Part shown: in pieces, positions 1-11,341 of the stretch
Position numbering within the stretch: position 1 is the first letter of the stretch
Layout: every line of letters begins with the position of its first letter
Origin: Candidatus Binatia bacterium
Lineage (GTDB): Bacteria; Desulfobacterota; Binatia; Bin18
Length of the DNA stretch: 64,000 bases
Reading direction: 5' to 3'
Assembly (NCBI GenBank): GCA_963666315.2
Contig: CAXXHG010000007.1
Span: 56,020-120,019 of the forward strand
The notes under the pieces: model-generated
The model's input: only the letters and a program-made list of their open reading frames with translations
Database searches by the model: none
Told to the model about the DNA's origin: nothing
Made by a program: the position numbers and the translations under genes

Positions 1-1842
1 CTGACGCTAGTCATGAGTAGCAACCTGCTCATGATGTTCATGTGCTGGGAAGTCATGGGCATCTGCTCCTATCTGCTGATCTCCCACCAATCCGATCGAA
101 AGGCGGCTTGCAACGCGGCGACAAAGGCCTTTCTCGTCAACGCCGTGGCCGACATTGGTCTGTTGTTCGGCATCATTCTGACCTTTGCCACGTTCGAGAC
201 GCTGGATGTCCGGCAGATCCTCAGTCAGTCCGCGAGCGTCAGCGGACAGACCATCAACCTGCTGGCATGGGTTGGCTTTGAATGGCACGTTCGTACGGTC
301 ACGTTGATCACGCTCTTGCTGTTTATGGGATGCTTGGGTAAATCGGCTCAGGTTCCATTCCATGTGTGGTTGCCTAACGCAATGGAGGCCCCAACCCCCG
401 TCTCGGCACTGATTCACGCTGCCACGATGGTCAATGCCGGGCCTTATTTGTTGGTTCGATTCAGCGACTTGGTACTACTGTCGCCTGCGGCGATGATGGT
501 GATCGCCATTATCGGTGCAACGACCGCGCTGTTCGCCGCGATGGTCGCTCTGACGCAGAGCGATATCAAGAAGATCCTCGCCTATTCCACGATCAGCCAA
601 ATCGGTTTCATGATCATGACATGTGGCCTGGGGGCGTTTATGGTGGCTATCTTTCATATGTTGGCTCACGGATTCTTGAAGGGCTTCCTGTTTTTATCGA
701 CAGGCAACGAGCTCGCATCAGCCGGCTCGCACGCACACCACGTACCCACACGACCGAAACTGTTGTCGCCGGTATCCCTCGGGGCGTTGATCCTGGCCTG
801 TGCTCCGCCCGCGCTGATCTTCTCGGGTCCATATGGGGCACTGTGGACGGTCCACAATTCGAGCGCCGCTCAGATCGCTTTCTGGGTGATCGGCTTGCTG
901 ACCGTCTTCTTCACGGCCATGTATCTTTTTCGCGGACTTACCTCGTTGTTTCAGCCAGCCACATCCGCGCTCGTTCAGCCGCGGTTCTTTTCCCCTTTGC
1001 ATCTCGTGGCTATCATCGTCGGATCGCTCGGGTTGATCAGCACTTTGTTGGCGCTCTGGGTGTGGTTTGTACCGTTCCTGGCACCGGCAATAGCGACGCC
1101 ATATCCACTCGTCGAGGGCTTCTGGCAGACGAGTCACGTGCCGTTGCTCGTATTGGCCCTGGTGGCGGCGCTGGCTGGCTGGGGCTTGGCGGCGCTGCTT
1201 CAGGCAAGACCCATGCTGTCCGCCGTTCCTCGCTTGCACTTCGCACAAACGATGTACGTGCTGTTTCTCAACAAATTCTATTTCGATGAGGCGTATAGCC
1301 TGTACATCGTTCAGCCCATGGTCCGAATGGTCAAGTGGCTGTGGCGTGAGATCGACGTTGGCGTCATCAACGGTCTGATCCATGGGATGGCTGCGAGGTT
1401 GGTTCGCTTTGGCCAGTGGCTGTGGGAGACAGTCGACGTTCGCGGTATTGATGACGTGGTTCGTCGTCTTGCAAGGAATACTGTCCTTTTTGGCCGGTGG
1501 CTGTGGGAGACAGTCGACGTTCGCGGTATTGATGACGTGGTTCGTCGTCTTGCAAGGAATACTGTCCTTTTTGGCCGGTGGCTGTGGGAGACAGTCGACG
1601 TTCGCGGTATTGATCGCATGGTCGTCGAAGGTGGTCAACAGAGTGCGGGGCTATCCCAGTGGCTGTGGGAGGCAGTCGACGTTCGCCGAATCGAGAAAGG
1701 CGCGGACCAAGTAGATCGTGCAGCCGAAGCCAGCGGGAAGAAACTGAACGAAGTCGAACCACGGCCGATTCAAGACCACTTGGGTGTGTTGATCGCATGG
1801 TTAGTCGCGGTCATCCTGTTTTTCTATTGGCTCGTATTATAA
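1..1842 (+). CDS. nuoL: NADH-quinone oxidoreductase subunit L-like antiporter (5' end outside window) with extended lateral helix
   Basis: Motifs WEVMGICSYLLI, GKSAQVPFHVWLPNAMEAPTPVSALIHAATMV, DIKKILAYSTISQIGFM, NKFYFDE; frame is open to position 1. Confidence 0.9.
   Translation: MTLVMSSNLLMMFMCWEVMGICSYLLISHQSDRKAACNAATKAFLVNAVADIGLLFGIILTFATFETLDVRQILSQSASVSGQTINLLAWVGFEWHVRTVTLITLLLFMGCLGKSAQVPFHVWLPNAMEAPTPVSALIHAATMVNAGPYLLVRFSDLVLLSPAAMMVIAIIGATTALFAAMVALTQSDIKKILAYSTISQIGFMIMTCGLGAFMVAIFHMLAHGFLKGFLFLSTGNELASAGSHAHHVPTRPKLLSPVSLGALILACAPPALIFSGPYGALWTVHNSSAAQIAFWVIGLLTVFFTAMYLFRGLTSLFQPATSALVQPRFFSPLHLVAIIVGSLGLISTLLALWVWFVPFLAPAIATPYPLVEGFWQTSHVPLLVLALVAALAGWGLAALLQARPMLSAVPRLHFAQTMYVLFLNKFYFDEAYSLYIVQPMVRMVKWLWREIDVGVINGLIHGMAARLVRFGQWLWETVDVRGIDDVVRRLARNTVLFGRWLWETVDVRGIDDVVRRLARNTVLFGRWLWETVDVRGIDRMVVEGGQQSAGLSQWLWEAVDVRRIEKGADQVDRAAEASGKKLNEVEPRPIQDHLGVLIAWLVAVILFFYWLVL
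1335..1739 (+). repeat. Five 81-bp (27-aa) in-frame tandem units inside nuoL
   Basis: GTGGCTGTGG recurs at 1335, 1416, 1497, 1578 and 1659; sequence 1416-1614 is a perfect 81-bp tandem repeat. Confidence 0.95.
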
Positions 1843-1877: not shown

Positions 1878-3368
1878 ATGAATGAACACCTGCTGTCTTT
1901 GATTATTTCCGTTCCTTTTGTTGGCATTGTGGTCCTGGCATTCGCGCCAAGCGAGCCGTGGATGCGGCGAATTGCGCTTGGCTGCACGCTGCTGGCCTTC
2001 GGGCTCTTCCTGATTCTCTGGTCCGGGTTCGACCCCAATGAGCAGGGCATGCAGTTTGTGGAGCGTATGCAGTGGATGCCGACATTCAACATTCAATATG
2101 CGGTTGGCGTAGATGGCATCAGCATCCTCTTGGTGTTGCTCACAACACTGCTGTCCCCTCTGTGCGTGTTGTGTTCGTGGACTTCGATCACCTCGCACGT
2201 GCGGGCCTTCATGATGCTGATTCTCCTGGTCGAAGGCGCCATGCTGGTGGTTTTTACGGCCCTGGACCTGTTCCTGTTCTTTATGATGTGGGAAGTCACG
2301 ATGATTCCTATGTACTTTATGATCATCCTCTGGGGCGGACCCGGACGGATTGCCGCGGGGTTGAAGTTCATCCTGTATAGTTTGACGGGAAGCCTACTGC
2401 TGCTCGTGGGGATTCTGGGACTTTACGTCCAAGGCGGACATACTTTTGACATGATTGCCCTGGCGGAGCAGACCTATTCTTCCACATCCCAGTTTTGGAT
2501 GTTTCTAGCTTTCATGTTGGCCTTTGCCATCAAGCTTCCGATGTTTCCGTTTCACACCTGGCTGCCTGACGCCCACGCTGAGGCGCCCACGGCCGGCAGT
2601 GTCATTTTGGCCGGCGTGCTTTTGAAAATGGGCGGATATGGATTCTTGCGGATTTGTCTGCCGATCCTTCCCGATGCGTCAGCGAGCTTTGCTCCCTTTA
2701 TGCTCTGGTTGTCGGTTGTGGCGATTCTGTACGGCGGGTTTATGGCCCTCGCCCAGGACGACATCAAAAAGCTTGTCGCCTATTCGTCGATCTCTCACAT
2801 GGGGTTCGTTACGCTGGGTATCTTCGTTTTCAATAGCCAGGGGATCCAAGGCGCGATTCTCCAAATGTTCAACCACGGGATCGTCACCGGGGCGATGTTC
2901 CTTGCGGTCGGCGTGTTATACGACCGCACGCACAGCCGACTGATCGGGGACTACGGCGGGCTGCACAAACAGATGCCACGGTTTGTCGCCCTGTTTTGTG
3001 TTTTCTCGGTGGCATCTTTCGGGCTGCCGGGGACGTGCGGTTTTATTGGCGAGGTCCTGGTATTGCTTGGCACCTCAGAGGAGAGTTTCGTTCTGGTCTT
3101 ACTCGCCATGGGAGGCATCGTACTGGCGGCGTCTTACATTCTATGGATGTTCCAACGAGTGGCGTTGGGACAGGCTGGCACGCAAGTCGCCTCGCAGCTT
3201 TCTGACATCACCGTCCGTGAAACGGTAACTCTCGCGCCGCTCGCCCTGGTGGTGTTTGCTGTCGGCGTCTATCCACGCCCACTTATGGAATTGATCGACG
3301 CCGGCGTCACCAAACTCGTGGAACTGACTCGTCAGGGACTGCCGCCCGAGATAACGGGCCTTTTCTAG
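1878..3368 (+). CDS. nuoM: NADH-quinone oxidoreductase subunit M
   Basis: Motifs GVDGIS, FAIKLPMFPFHTWLPDAHAEAPTAGSVILAGVLLKMGGYG, LVAYSSISHMGFV. Confidence 0.93.
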   Translation: MNEHLLSLIISVPFVGIVVLAFAPSEPWMRRIALGCTLLAFGLFLILWSGFDPNEQGMQFVERMQWMPTFNIQYAVGVDGISILLVLLTTLLSPLCVLCSWTSITSHVRAFMMLILLVEGAMLVVFTALDLFLFFMMWEVTMIPMYFMIILWGGPGRIAAGLKFILYSLTGSLLLLVGILGLYVQGGHTFDMIALAEQTYSSTSQFWMFLAFMLAFAIKLPMFPFHTWLPDAHAEAPTAGSVILAGVLLKMGGYGFLRICLPILPDASASFAPFMLWLSVVAILYGGFMALAQDDIKKLVAYSSISHMGFVTLGIFVFNSQGIQGAILQMFNHGIVTGAMFLAVGVLYDRTHSRLIGDYGGLHKQMPRFVALFCVFSVASFGLPGTCGFIGEVLVLLGTSEESFVLVLLAMGGIVLAASYILWMFQRVALGQAGTQVASQLSDITVRETVTLAPLALVVFAVGVYPRPLMELIDAGVTKLVELTRQGLPPEITGLF

Positions 3369-7362: not shown

Positions 7363-8985
7363 TCACGGCGGAGACAGGTCTAATACGGACCCCTTTGTAT
7401 TTGTCCGTTCTCCGCTCTGACATCGGCAACCAAATGCACCGTTCCATCCGCGTGCGGTTGGGTGCGGACAAAGCCGAAATTGAACAGGTCGCCCTGTGCG
7501 TATAGTAGTGTTGGGTTGAGGGTTGGATCAAGTTGGGTTTGGGTCACGGCTGGAGCCATGCCGGCATTCAGTGGTCCAGTGATCAGTTCATGAAAAATGA
7601 GCAGATCGCCGTCTCCGTCGGCATCAAGTGCGTATCGAATCTGGGCTGCAAAATGAACGTCGGTGGTGATAAAGACAATATTGTTCACATTGGCTTCATC
7701 TAGGAAGTGTAGGAGATCTAGGAGTTCTCGCTCAAATCCAGTCTGACCCGTCTGGGCAGAAAAGTCCGGACTGTTTCCATTCGCCCAGCCATCTCGACCC
7801 AATATGTGGGCTAGGCTTCCGGTCGGAACAGACAGGGGGACATCGCTACTGACGATTTTCCAGGTCGCTTGTGAATCCTGAAGTTGCTGTTTCAGCCAAG
7901 CGAGTTGCGCCGAACCGAGTAGTGCCTTCTGGTGTGTTTGCGTATCGGCCAGATCGTTCCGGCCTCGATATGAGCGTGCATCCAGGAGAAAAAGGTCGAG
8001 GTGCTGCCCCCACTGGAAGGCGCGATATATCCGCTGGGACCCGTCTGGATGTCGAGCGATGGGCGAGTACAGAAAAAATGTTTCCCGGCCAATAGTGACA
8101 AGGTTGGGATAGCCTATTCGTTCTCCTGTCGTTTGCGCCCAGTATGTCCAGCGCGCCCCAAAGTCGTTCAGTACTTCATGATCGTCCCACTGGGCATACA
8201 TGGGCACGTGCTGGAAGAAGTGCTGCACGGCAGGATCCGCGCGATTGTATTGCCAATGCAGGCGATAGACTCGCCGCAGCTGGCTGAGATCGGTCCAATC
8301 CACTGTCGGCGAGAGTACGCCGGGAAACCGGCCTGGAATATTCTTCCAGACCGGAGGAGGTGAGCTGTGTGGTTCGTTTGCTCCAGCTCCAAGTGGTCCA
8401 AGCAGCCGTTCAGGGGGACAACCATCATCCGCATAAATCATATCGCCATTGGCAACAAAGAAGTCGGGCTGTAACGCGGCCATCCGGGTAAAGATGGCAT
8501 AGCCTGTCTGTTTTTGGCGACACAGACCTTGTCCGCCCAAATCTCCGCCAAAGACAAAGGTAACAGGCTTGGGAGATTCACCATCTGGAGCGGTTGTCAA
8601 GCGGCCTTGCGTAGTCGCTGACTGCTCACGCTGATTTCCTGCCGGCTCGGCTGTGAGCCAGACGCGGTAATAGTAGTGCGTGCTGGGCTGCAGCCCGGTC
8701 GGTGCGACCTGGCCGGTGTAGTCCGACTCTTGGGTGACGAAGATTAGGTTGTGCAGTCTGAGGATGAGAGAAGTCCGGACTCCTGTCGTATGCGACACGG
8801 AGATAGACCTCGTGATTGGCTCGGGACCAGATAACGACACTGTGTGATGTTACATCACCACGCGCAATACCGTGGGTGAGCGTCGCCACGTCTGCGATTT
8901 GGGCAGACTGGCCACCGGGGAGGGCATACAGTAACAAGAACATGCTGATTAAGAGCAGACGGACACCCATTCGCAGCCGAGGCAT
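7363..8985 (-). pseudogene. phoD: Alkaline phosphatase D (PhoD), frameshifted
   Basis: Signal peptide and THGIARGDVT..VVIWSR in one frame, +1 shift near 8745 into NGDMIYAD, WDDHEV, LDARSYR, TTDVH; probable second shift near 7392 (GSVLDLSPP*). Confidence 0.85.
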
Positions 8986-9029
8986 AGTTTTTCCTCTCGT
9001 TCTTTGCACTGGCTTACAGCATACACAAA

Positions 9030-9062
9030 CAAATAAGCAAATAGGCAAATAAGCAAATAAGC
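9030..9062. repeat. 8-bp tandem repeat (CAAATAAG)x4 in the phoD/phoX divergent spacer
   Basis: caaataag caaatagg caaataag caaataag. Confidence 0.85.
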
Positions 9063-9154
9063 CCGGAGAGGGGCAGCGCCCCCTCGGGGCAATGCCCCTT
9101 CCTTGTCAGGTCTGCCGACTGCTATCGTGTATCAGTTTCATATTGCTAGCTCGC

Positions 9155-11341
9155 ATGCGACGATTCAGTGTCATCTTTTTTGTGATTACAGCCTTTCTCG
9201 TCTTAACCGTCGCTATAGTTTTGCAGAGCCGGGGGCAAATTGATGCACCCGCCCCGCTGTCTTCGGTTGTGGCGATCACGCACCCCGAAGGAAAGAATAT
9301 TGCTGAATTCGTCAAAGCACAGGTCGCCCAGGTTTCCAATGTTGCTAGTGGCAAGGCCCCCGCTCGTTCATTCCCGCTTGCCCCTGCTACATCCGATACG
9401 GTCCGTGTACTGGACGGCCTACACAGTCACGTGGTGGTGAAGTGGCTTGATGCGTTAACAACACAGCCGTCATCTGTACCCCGCTTTGGGGCGAATAATG
9501 ATTATCTTGCCTATTTTGGTGATGACTGGGATGCCGACTGGCAGGGCGATGTGCCGGGCAGCGCGCCGCAGTTTAACGGCAGCGGGCAGTCGGGCTGGCT
9601 GTGGGTGAATCATGAGTATGTATCAAACTTTTCACCGACCCTGACTACTGCGCCGACCGGCCAGCACCTGATTTTTGCAAAATTTCTGAAAGCCCAGGAC
9701 ATCTTGCAAAACAATGTGGACGCGCCACTCTGGCCGCAGACTGCGCTGGACATCTATATTCGGTACCACAAGCAGCAACTTGGCGGCTCATGGCTGCGGA
9801 TTGTCCGTAACGCCCAAACCGGTCGCTGGAGTGTGGATCGTTCAGCCCAGGCGGTCCGATTTAATGCGACCAGCCAGACGCTCGTCACAGTGACGGGCCA
9901 GACATTGCGCTCCCGTGACCATGATGACACTGGGCAGCCTCTCCCGGCTGGTGTGGTCGTTGGCATCTTGGCGGATTGTTCGGGCGGGCAAACACCGTGG
10001 GGAACAATTATAACCGCAGAAGAAAACCAGCGGTGGTTTTACGGAGACCTAGAGATTTGCTGGGATCAAAACCAAAAATTCATAACAGAAAAAGGGTGTG
10101 ATCCTGGGGCGCCCATCGCCGTACCGACTGACCCGAGTCCTGCCTCTATATTTGGCCAGACTTCACATTGGCAGGAGCGTCATAGCCGCGAAGGCTACGG
10201 CTATCTTGTGGAAATAGATATCCGGAGTGCCCCCAATATTTTCTATACAAGTGTAGCTGATGGAGGCAGCGGGCGGGGGCATCGCAAGATTGGCAGTATG
10301 GGTCGCGCGCGCTGGGAGAATGTGGCCATCGTGGTGGACCGGAATTGGCAGCTTCAGTCCGGCAAACGAATCGTGCTCTACGCCGGCAACGACCGGCGCA
10401 GTGGCCGTATCTATAAATGGGTCAGCAAAGAACCCTACTCTGCAGGCATGACGCGAGCCCGGATTCGGTCATTACTCGATCAGGGCACGCTCTTTGTGGC
10501 CCACTTTGCCGGGCTCGATAACATGACTGGAAAGACACTTCTGGGTGGGACGGTGCCGACGGAGCAGCAGCCTGGCTCCGGACGGTGGATACATCTCAGT
10601 ATTGATAGTCTCGATATTGCTCCGAACGCTGAAGCTCTGGGTGATGCAAAAAAGACCGTGGGCGCCGCGCTTCAGGATATGGGCTGGAACAAGATGGGCG
10701 GCTTTCAGACTGATCACGACGTCAGACGCACGCTGTTCACTGCTGTGGCAAAGGTCGGTGTGATGGAGCTGAATCGACCGGAAGACCTGGAATGGAATCC
10801 TAAAGATCCGAGCGGAACGCCCCGCTTATATGTCGCCTTTACCAATCATTTCCAGGGAACCCAGCTTGATCAGCACGGGGTGATATTAGATCCGTCTATT
10901 GTCACGGTTCGCAACGATGAAGATGGGGCCATTTTCGTTATCCAGGAAGTGGACGTTCAGAGCCCAGCTCAATCAAAGACGTTTTCCTATTTCTCTGTAT
11001 GGCGGGGTTCTGTGGACCCGGCTGATGCGTCCGCTGCCGCCAACCCTGATAACCTCATGATCGACCGTGAAGGCGGCGTATGGTTTGGAACGGACAGAAA
11101 TTTTATACGCACTAGAGGCAGGGCCGCTGACGGTCTGTACTATCTTGATCTTGATCCCAGCCATCAAGCGGGAAAGCCTGGTATTACCGACCCCAGCTTT
11201 GGCAAAGCCTTTCGTATTGCCACCGTCCCGAGTGACGCCGAAGCCACCGGGCCTGCGTTTAACTCGGATATGACGACCATCTTTCTGAGTGTGCAGCATC
11301 CGGGCGAACGCTTCCCCAGCACCTGGCCGCAGGCGCGCTGA
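9155..11341 (+). CDS. phoX: Alkaline phosphatase PhoX (DUF839)
   Basis: FGANNDY, WVNHEY, DCSGGQTPWGTIITAEEN, GRARWEN, NRPED, NPDNL, EATGP, LSVQHPGE; start inferred at MRRFSVIFF. Confidence 0.9.
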   Translation: MRRFSVIFFVITAFLVLTVAIVLQSRGQIDAPAPLSSVVAITHPEGKNIAEFVKAQVAQVSNVASGKAPARSFPLAPATSDTVRVLDGLHSHVVVKWLDALTTQPSSVPRFGANNDYLAYFGDDWDADWQGDVPGSAPQFNGSGQSGWLWVNHEYVSNFSPTLTTAPTGQHLIFAKFLKAQDILQNNVDAPLWPQTALDIYIRYHKQQLGGSWLRIVRNAQTGRWSVDRSAQAVRFNATSQTLVTVTGQTLRSRDHDDTGQPLPAGVVVGILADCSGGQTPWGTIITAEENQRWFYGDLEICWDQNQKFITEKGCDPGAPIAVPTDPSPASIFGQTSHWQERHSREGYGYLVEIDIRSAPNIFYTSVADGGSGRGHRKIGSMGRARWENVAIVVDRNWQLQSGKRIVLYAGNDRRSGRIYKWVSKEPYSAGMTRARIRSLLDQGTLFVAHFAGLDNMTGKTLLGGTVPTEQQPGSGRWIHLSIDSLDIAPNAEALGDAKKTVGAALQDMGWNKMGGFQTDHDVRRTLFTAVAKVGVMELNRPEDLEWNPKDPSGTPRLYVAFTNHFQGTQLDQHGVILDPSIVTVRNDEDGAIFVIQEVDVQSPAQSKTFSYFSVWRGSVDPADASAAANPDNLMIDREGGVWFGTDRNFIRTRGRAADGLYYLDLDPSHQAGKPGITDPSFGKAFRIATVPSDAEATGPAFNSDMTTIFLSVQHPGERFPSTWPQAR

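Follow-up and report, generated by a model that had tools for sequence, protein, structure and literature searches.

The window analysed here is a 64,000-nucleotide (nt) stretch from the 4.99-Mb, 47-contig genome of a Candidatus Binatia bacterium (contig C7:56020-120019), and it opens inside the gene of a NuoL-type antiporter-like subunit. The lateral helix of this protein, which lies between transmembrane helices (TM) 15 and 16, carries five tandem modules of 27 residues, four more than the lateral helix of an ordinary NuoL. Among homologues the number of modules (n) ranges from two to five, differs between nearly identical proteins and does not count extra pump genes. The explanation that we favour, with about even confidence, is that TM15 and TM16 of the NuoL-type subunit are joined by a modular strap, prone to recombination, whose length varies within bounds, and not by a ruler of subunits.

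Frame 1 is open from the first base of the window to a stop codon at 1840-1842, so that the window begins mid-gene and holds the 3' part of the open reading frame (ORF), residues 127-739 (1..1842, + strand), as assigned from the translation and from Pfam PF00361 and PF00662. The complete gene encodes 739 amino acids (aa; protein P0002), lies at L007:15622-17841 in the coordinates of the surrounding locus (window coordinate = L007 minus 15999) and starts 378 nt upstream of the window. After the motif NKFYFDE and 12 further residues the protein runs through five 27-residue WLWxxVDV modules, a 13-residue linker and a terminal hydrophobic helix, all on the + strand. The lateral helix starts with the canonical segment LFLNKFYFDEAYSLYIVQPMVRMVK (1258..1335), common to every NuoL. 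Module 1, WLWREIDVGVINGLIHGMAARLVRFGQ (1336..1416), is also present in ordinary NuoL by alignment and is of the A type, the first-position type by sub-profile. Module 2, WLWETVDVRGIDDVVRRLARNTVLFGR (1417..1497), is followed by its recent duplicate, module 3 (1498..1578), then by the B-type module 4, WLWETVDVRGIDRMVVEGGQQSAGLSQ (1579..1659), recognised by repeat search and sub-profile class, and by the C-type module 5, WLWEAVDVRRIEKGADQVDRAAEASGK (1660..1740), which is the last-position type. The juxtamembrane linker KLNEVEPRPIQDH (1741..1779; family consensus KLxDVEPRTLQHH) leads to the last TM helix, the TM16 equivalent, and the stop codon (LGVLIAWLVAVILFFYWLVL; 1780..1842), as indicated by hydrophobicity and by a helix at residues 716-738 of an AlphaFold2 (AF2) model.

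A degenerate 24-nt motif derived from the start of the unit matched the + strand five times, at 1336, 1417, 1498, 1579 and 1660, with a spacing of 81 nt, and had no match in 100 shuffles of the window. A repeat search recovered a 39-nt core in five copies (spacings 81, 81, 81 and 81; identity 67-100%) and three 81-nt copies at 1408-1488, 1489-1569 (99%) and 1570-1650 (68%), and Tandem Repeats Finder reported a period of 81 with 2.6 copies and 99% matches. In codon register, modules 2 and 3 agree at every position (81/81 nt), the first 39 nt of module 4 share 95% with them, and modules 1 and 5 have 57% and 53% nucleotide identity to module 2, respectively. The preliminary description of this DNA, which reported five units at an exact 81-bp period between NKFYFDE and the last TM helix, with nucleotide-identical middle copies and diverged outer ones, is thus borne out by motif scan, repeat search and translation, as is its view that tandem duplication lengthened a NuoL-type lateral helix by four extra 27-aa modules.

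The identity of the protein is plain from its core, which matches PF00361 (E 4.3e-62) and PF00662 (E 1.8e-16), and from its closest structural relatives, which are NuoL/ND5 chains (8qby_L, E 5e-80); MrpA (1.7e-40) and DabB2 (4.6e-35) are further off. Over its N-terminal 500 residues the protein matches chains of NuoL/ND5 at E 1e-67 to 5e-80, and the repeats occupy the position of the lateral helix of NuoL/Nqo12/ND5, between TM15 and TM16, where NKFYFDE and module 1 (residues 530-594) align to the single matching stretch of Paracoccus NuoL (8qby_L 601-664). The AF2 helices at residues 551-603 and 716-738 agree with a C-terminal arrangement of TM15, lateral amphipathic helix and TM16. That a typical NuoL has one such segment, as had been stated, also follows from two further comparisons. 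A module profile built from 354 distinct modules gave 30-41 bits for each of the five modules of the window protein, and at most two partial matches per protein, each of 2.9 bits or less, when run on 57 further NuoL/MrpA-type ORFs of this genome and of the loci retrieved. Behind the FDE anchor, three ordinary NuoLs have 76-80 residues and one module, whereas the window protein has 187 residues and five modules.

Lateral helices lengthened by a single block are known from elsewhere. The NuoL of the Nitrospira 2M complex I has a 26-residue insert, postulated to accommodate a fourth pump subunit, and an insert is also described for MrpD2/NuoL of 'Ca. Manganitrophaceae' (accessible text of PMC9040806, citing Chadwick et al. 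2018). The likeness to the repeat family is a strap longer by a block of about 26-27 residues, and in three NuoLs whose clusters hold four PF00361 genes the anchor is followed by 105-109 residues, as it is by 106 in the members with n = 2. The differences are that in 2M complex I there is one insert for one extra pump gene, whereas here one to four extra modules come with no extra pump gene, and that the modules of the repeat family are clear tandem copies whose number differs among close relatives. The window operon itself has one NuoM-type gene beside four extra modules, and the genomes' own four-pump clusters are located elsewhere. A separate case stands on contig C10 of the window's own genome (G000), whose other NuoL, of nuo type and 725 aa long (PF00361 part at about C10:168954-169853), has two lateral-helix modules, beginning FDRYVIDFIVDG and FDDWIIDGLVNA, and 146 residues after the anchor, with only three PF00361 matches in its cluster.

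In TM12 the protein also departs from NuoL, where the proton path uses Lys399/Asp400 in E. coli numbering (accessible part of preprint 10.64898/2026.03.13.711513). The FLSKD of 8qby_L aligns to FSGPYG of the window protein, and the Lys-Asp pair is replaced by Y-E in the repeat family and by Y-G here. The missing pair was considered as a DabB-like trait and dropped, since 106 of 112 homologues carry a conserved Glu at the adjacent position. The window protein deviates from its relatives at two nearly invariant residues, E405G (window 835-837), in this TM12 motif FSGPYE, and H718D (1774-1776), in the linker, where 103 of 112 homologues have His. Residues N550, K551, Y553 and Y545 are invariant in all 112.

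These homologues come from a protein search with residues 380-739, which returned 151 matches at E <=1e-3. The best 120 of the 151 were taken, nine were dropped as truncated (P0010, P0015, P0019, P0024, P0033, P0053, P0073, P0111 and P0113), and the remaining 111 were aligned with the query (alignment A1). The lengths fall into classes 27 residues apart, and in 105 of 112 the C-terminus lies 87, 114, 141 or 168 residues (33+27n), within one residue, from the first module. By tail length, n is 2 in 10 proteins, 3 in 44, 4 in 47 and 5 in 11; counted by profile matches instead, the numbers are 11, 45, 45 and 11. No member with one or six modules occurs among the 112, and no array of six or more among the 118 matches (E <=1e-3) to the 194-aa tail in 1.84 billion cluster representatives, which are mostly fragments of the same family. 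Four of these matches were rejected: P0171, P0179 and P0214 are unrelated repeat proteins sharing only short repeated motifs, and P0176 is a low-complexity repeat protein without a module. Another match from the representatives, P0174 (215 aa), is a Lys/Asn-rich, NuoL-like C-terminal fragment of an unrelated lineage, with its own tandem modules, beginning SRWMYSFVELKGFEK, before a canonical QTG tail; two neighbouring copies begin 27 residues apart. Module duplication in the lateral helix thus seems to have arisen more than once.

Within the modules, the first half, WLWxx[VI]DVRGIDR, is strongly conserved, and a variable second half follows in which Gly, Ser and Ala abound. Over the first 13 positions L2 is conserved in 92%, W3 in 99%, V/I6 in 95%, V8 in 75%, R9 in 80%, I11 in 84% and D12 in 68%; W1 and D7 were fixed by the selection pattern, so that their 100% is uninformative. 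Modules were assigned to classes A, B and C with sub-profiles trained on first, middle and last modules, a partly circular scheme under which the 112 homologues show the architectures ABBC (32), ABC (29), AABC (14), BBC (11), ABBBC (8), BC (6) and rarer forms. A C-type module ends the array in 110 of 112. The linker and the TM16 behind it hardly vary, with P713 in 108, R714 in 111, Q717 in 108, H718 in 103 and H719 in 101 of the 112. Judged by these patterns, the ends of the array look fixed and its middle looks variable.

The number of modules turns over quickly. In a FastTree phylogeny built on the first 550 residues, from which the repeat columns were excluded, n changes at least 42 times over the 112 tips, and 200 shuffles of the labels gave a mean of 50.5 changes (range 41-58); n therefore carries little phylogenetic signal, an appearance that many unresolved forks in the tree inflate somewhat. 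Over their first 550 residues no difference separates proteins P0007 and P0008 (n = 4) from P0022 (n = 3), and P0026 (n = 3), nearly identical over the same residues, lacks a different module. The closest relative of the window protein among the matches listed, P0003 (712 aa, 94% identical), equals the window protein minus one copy of module 2/3. Adjacent modules are at least 90% identical in 8 of the 112 proteins. At locus L008, an independent assembly with 93% identity, there are five modules, of which the second and third share 99% identity and carry substitutions that do not occur in the window, a pattern that implies gene conversion or independent duplication. Modules 2 and 3 of L014 and L024 are old and orthologous by position. 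As to the source of L008, its record, the closest genome record, is titled as an uncultured Enterobacteriaceae metagenome-assembled genome (MAG); the next relatives have titles of Planctomycetota or Pirellulales, and the label looks doubtful.

The number of pump genes does not follow these changes. A search for related loci gave 80, of which 26 belong to the repeat family and the rest are ordinary NuoL loci at 32-42% identity. The ORFs of the 26 loci were labelled with the window's eleven operon proteins as queries, over flanks of up to 10 kb. All three pump ORFs are shown in 21 loci, each with exactly three; four others are cut by a contig end and show two, and one (L034) is fragmented. No fourth pump gene was found in any of the 26 loci within these flanks. 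Across the 21 three-pump loci n is 2 in L015 and L018, 3 in 12 loci, 4 in L010, L014, L024, L027 and L028 (L027 and L028 with tails of 137 residues) and 5 in L008 and L016. Three antiporter-like subunits are the ordinary number of complex I, whose NuoL has one module. The lengths of DabA (955-1048 aa) and of the other subunits, compared by eye, show no trend with n in the loci.

Whole-genome counts of PF00361 matches lead to the same result. With n = 5 they are 14 (G000), 8 (G006) and 9 (G007); with n = 4, 10 (G001), 10 (G008) and 6 (G004); with n = 3, 10 (G002), 12 (G003), 12 (G005) and 6 (G010); and with n = 2, 10 (G009), so that no trend with n appears across the 11 genomes. The window genome has one DabA gene and 14 PF00361 matches; the 11 outside the operon form groups of two or three and are placed on other contigs or at the distant end of C7. 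In general, the other PF00361 genes form clusters of their own of two to four where contigs are long enough to tell, and G001 (n = 4) and G002 (n = 3), both titled as whole chromosomes, have the same cluster pattern, 4+3+3. Since exactly three pumps accompany two to five modules in 21/21 loci and the genome counts show no trend, the proposal of the preliminary description that each extra module brackets one additional antiporter is not supported, and the correlation between repeat number and antiporter number that it expected across homologues is absent.

The geometry of the array also bears on how it may work. A module of 27 residues corresponds to 7.5 helical turns, and in one ideal helix the hydrophobic-moment vectors of successive modules differ in direction by about 180 degrees, so that an amphipathic helix that is straight and continuous cannot show the same face in each module. 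The AF2 model (739 aa, 112 aligned sequences) has a helix at residues 551-603, with a predicted local distance difference test (pLDDT) score of about 60-70, and breaks it, at low confidence, near the VDVRGID motifs of modules 2 and 3. In the explanation that we favour, the extra modules would form a segmented chain of amphipathic surface helices of about 20 residues, kinked at each DVRGID. The strap opens with a canonical A-type module and closes with a C-type module, which, together with the following EPRTLQHH motif and TM16, would make an apparently fixed anchor; between these ends the A- or B-type modules vary in number. Unequal recombination would be driven by the 40 conserved nt at the start of each 81-nt unit, so that whole modules are often gained and lost. 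The length of such a strap could vary with both of its ends docked, and no rigid rod would measure out subunits.

Several points weigh against this explanation. The pLDDT of the AF2 model falls to 27-39 at residues 627-719, where it is uninformative, so the kinked-chain geometry rests on the simple helical-phase argument. Part of the variation of n among near-identical proteins could be short-read misassembly, as the units share 30-40 identical bases, and the records titled as whole chromosomes (L014, L017, L023 and L028) show only n = 3 and n = 4. The strong conservation of the first half of the module and the exact period of 27 in diverged proteins look like a specific contact made by each module and not like slack. 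The family minimum of two modules is one above that of complex I for three pumps, and at least one extra module seems to be required. Finally, with its departures E405G and H718D, the window protein may be atypical in function.

The same minimum fits another explanation, a strap of long reach, which we consider rather unlikely. The helix would pass both neighbouring pumps, MbhD/E-MrpB-MrpC and MrpF-G-E to the end of the arm, and longer forms would clamp the second protomer of a dimer mediated by MrpE. In favour of it, each operon has genes for Mrp small subunits, two modules are one above the need of three pumps, and a rough estimate from subunit widths suggests that two to three modules would reach the far end of the arm. 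In the solved Mrp, the lateral helix HL braces the complex, a likeness to the lateral strap considered here, and MrpE makes most of the dimer interface (accessible text of PMC7419157). The difficulty is that an anchor motif and a TM16 that are nearly invariant would have to go with an anchor site that shifts with n.

It is unlikely, at a somewhat lower level, that the organism in fact has four modules like P0003 and that the fifth arose in assembly, from one loop too many. Modules 2 and 3 do not differ, the 118 nt at 1416-1533 occur again at 1497-1614, and P0003, 94% identical, has the four modules that this explanation predicts. Contigs of four public runs (X1, X2, X5 and X7; X1 and X2 may be the sample of origin) stop at about 1445 and resume around 1504-1614, and none spans the repeat. 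On the other side, the unitigs of X1 have depths of 5.6 for a 104-nt repeat and 9 for a 37-nt core against 3.5 and 2.9 for the flanks, which, at this low depth, is roughly the twofold and threefold coverage that the assembly predicts. The independent assembly at L008 shares the five-module layout, and diverged five-module arrays exist elsewhere, in L016 (60-84% nucleotide identity among the first four modules and 49-64% to the last), P0013 and P0017. A contig of the seawater run X5 joins 1847 to 1950 and skips 102 nt, which take in the spacer between the two genes and the opening codons of the NuoM-type gene; this contig may derive from a relative with a different gene junction.

A ruler of stoichiometry is quite improbable. 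In this explanation each extra module would seat a further copy of an operon-encoded pump, of NuoM type or MrpD type, and would so set the pumps and ions per CO2. It draws on the exact period of 27 residues, which is about 40 A as a helix, on the strongly conserved first half of the module, on the 105-109 residues after the anchor in NuoLs of four-PF00361 clusters against 76-80 in ordinary ones, and on the postulated fit of a fourth pump to the 2M insert (PMC9040806, as above). It is opposed by the lack of extra pump genes in 21/21 loci and of any tracking n in 11 genomes, and by the differences in n among proteins identical over their first 550 residues. We know of no case in which one antiporter-like gene product fills several positions in such an arm, which also counts against it. 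On a continuous helix, moreover, successive modules would show opposite faces, and, in the accessible text of PMC9040806, inserts occur too in NuoLs of complexes without an extra subunit.

Docking of a peripheral partner by the modules is very doubtful. The WLWxxVDVRGIDR motifs would bind DabA or the cytoplasmic domain of SulP, and more modules would mean more copies or tighter binding. Both putative partners are conserved members of the operon, each module has a conserved first half, and DabA is here about 130-170 residues longer than the solved DabA2. A complex prediction for residues 316-739 with DabA 425-998 gave weak support, scoring 0.57 against 0.00 for the best of three controls, with at least 50% of contacts agreeing between runs and a partner pLDDT of at least 79; in calibration the mark was reached by 58/80 solved complexes and by 2/110 mismatched pairs, and at scores of 0.60 or less only 7 of the 80 solved complexes passed, as did both passing mismatches. 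In DAB2, DabA2 puts a finger-like hairpin among TM11-14 of the NuoL-like DabB2 and also binds cytoplasmic loops (accessible part of preprint 10.64898/2026.03.13.711513), and among the three pumps of the window operon only the 739-aa protein is of NuoL type, with the DabB2 match at E 4.6e-35; the other two have none at thresholds of 1e-20 and 1e-30. Together, prediction and precedent suggest that DabA may dock on the NuoL-type subunit, which forms part of the explanation that we favour. The prediction came without a contact list and is silent on whether the modules touch DabA, the accessible part of the DAB2 preprint names no contact of DabA2 with the lateral helix, and the length of DabA has no trend with n in the loci.

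A heritable and rapidly mutable ruler, in which slipped or unequal recombination would alter the reach of the strap and with it the pump-subunit copies held or the clamping of a second protomer, is very improbable, and if true it would allow strain-level tuning of the ions spent per CO2 captured.

The NuoL-type gene is the tenth of 11 in an operon on one strand. It is preceded by genes for SulP (L007:7006-8634; Pfam), a DabA of 998 aa (L007:8643-11639; PF10070, 877.7 bits), MrpE (L007:11555-12124; MNHE), MrpF (L007:12121-12390; MrpF_PhaF), MrpG (L007:12390-12728; PhaG_MnhG), an MbhD plus MbhE-like protein of 187 aa (L007:12692-13255; MbhD and MbhE), MrpB (L007:13252-13701; MnhB), MrpC of the NuoK/MrpC type (L007:13694-14089; Oxidored_q2) and an MrpD-type pump of 498 aa (L007:14086-15582; PF00361), the last being closest to MbhH (6cfw_H, 2.6e-54) and MrpD (7qru_D, 1.4e-53). 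The last operon gene encodes a NuoM-type pump of 496 aa (window 1878..3368, + strand, equal to L007:17877-19367; PF00361; 8qby_M, E 9.1e-128), in which the TM12 motif GFIGEV is kept. Downstream follow the unrelated genes for PadR, MgtE, PhoD and PhoX, so that the preliminary description was right that one nuoM and no nuoN follow, and the DabA that it had suggested looking for upstream lies in the same operon. A scan for terminators and promoters, including a terminator-like hairpin at 3344-3359, gave nothing better than shuffles.

By Pfam labels, the 11-gene operon contains no nuoA-J, nuoH or nuoN; unlike in complex I, the only nuo-like gene adjacent to the window gene is the NuoM-type one, and, judged from this gene content, the window gene sits outside any complex I operon. 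The oversized complex I-like arm that had been proposed gives way to homologues of MrpE, F, G, B and C and a DabA in place of nuo genes. With MNHE, MrpF_PhaF, PhaG_MnhG, MnhB, Oxidored_q2 and an MrpD/MbhH-like PF00361 protein, the operon resembles Mrp (CPA3) and the Mrp-like module of MBH and MBS. It differs in having no fused MrpA, the NuoL-type protein stopping at TM16 and the other parts of MrpA lying in the separate 187-aa MbhD plus MbhE-like ORF, and in the addition of the NuoM-type pump, DabA and SulP.

The other likeness is to the DAB pumps, DAB2 (DabA-DabB) and DAB1 (DabA-DabB-DabC). The DabA of the operon aligns to the solved DabA2 (9rd0_A, E 6.1e-115) and keeps the motifs CIDVRSE, GHGS and CGAC, which hold the Cys-His-Cys zinc ligands named in the accessible part of preprint 10.64898/2026.03.13.711513, and a NuoL-like candidate partner is encoded beside it. 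A figure legend of the same preprint gives the solved DabB2 a lateral helix too. The NuoL-type subunit here is nevertheless nearer to NuoL (5e-80) than to DabB2 (4.6e-35). In the accessible parts of the DAB structure preprints, the described DABs have one pump subunit, with or without the small DabC, in two- and three-subunit forms only, whereas this operon has three pumps and six Mrp small subunits. The 11 gene products would form one complex, with a DabA head, a beta-carbonic-anhydrase-like CO2-hydrating protein, on an Mrp/complex-I-like membrane arm with three pumps.

The same gene order, with DabA and the Mrp genes, occurs in 19/19 loci whose upstream flank reaches far enough, and by record titles these belong to Planctomycetota, Nitrospirales, Nitrospinota and Gammaproteobacteria. 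An operon class 'clade C' with ybcC (DabA), SulP, NuoL and NuoM was listed earlier (PMC5700660), and in Nitrospira nuoL/nuoM-like genes lie beside an Mrp cluster and BicA (PMC7784846, PMC12342949); the accessible texts of these three papers make no mention of tandem modules in the lateral helix. In the literature searched on DabA/DUF2309 with Mrp and on inserts or repeats in the NuoL lateral helix, with supplements showing Nitrospira and COGNAT operons outside the search, the repeat is not described. Among the loci, L015 has its SulP gene downstream of the NuoM-type gene (L015:7437-9182) instead of at the operon head. In L034, a MAG labelled Acidimicrobiia, every operon gene is split into short ORFs, which would imply many frameshifts, in a decayed copy or an error-rich assembly. 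The operon of the window stands in a phosphate-scavenging neighbourhood, with two phosphate-selective porin genes and a PstS-like binding protein upstream (L007:20-6303) and the PhoD and PhoX phosphatases downstream (window 7380-11341). Also upstream is a 766-aa ORF in which an ABC permease domain is joined to WD40-like beta-propeller matches.

In the usual view, NuoL's lateral helix is a strap whose length matches the number of pump subunits, and the 26-residue insert of the 2M complex I is the standard example. The repeat family breaks this rule, with two to five modules that turn over quickly on a fixed gene set, so that annotation should not infer additional pump subunits from the length of the strap alone. 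As a DAB CO2 pump, the cluster would far exceed in size the forms of two and three subunits with recently reported structures, and its natural variants with two, three, four and five modules are a ready-made series for the function of the strap.

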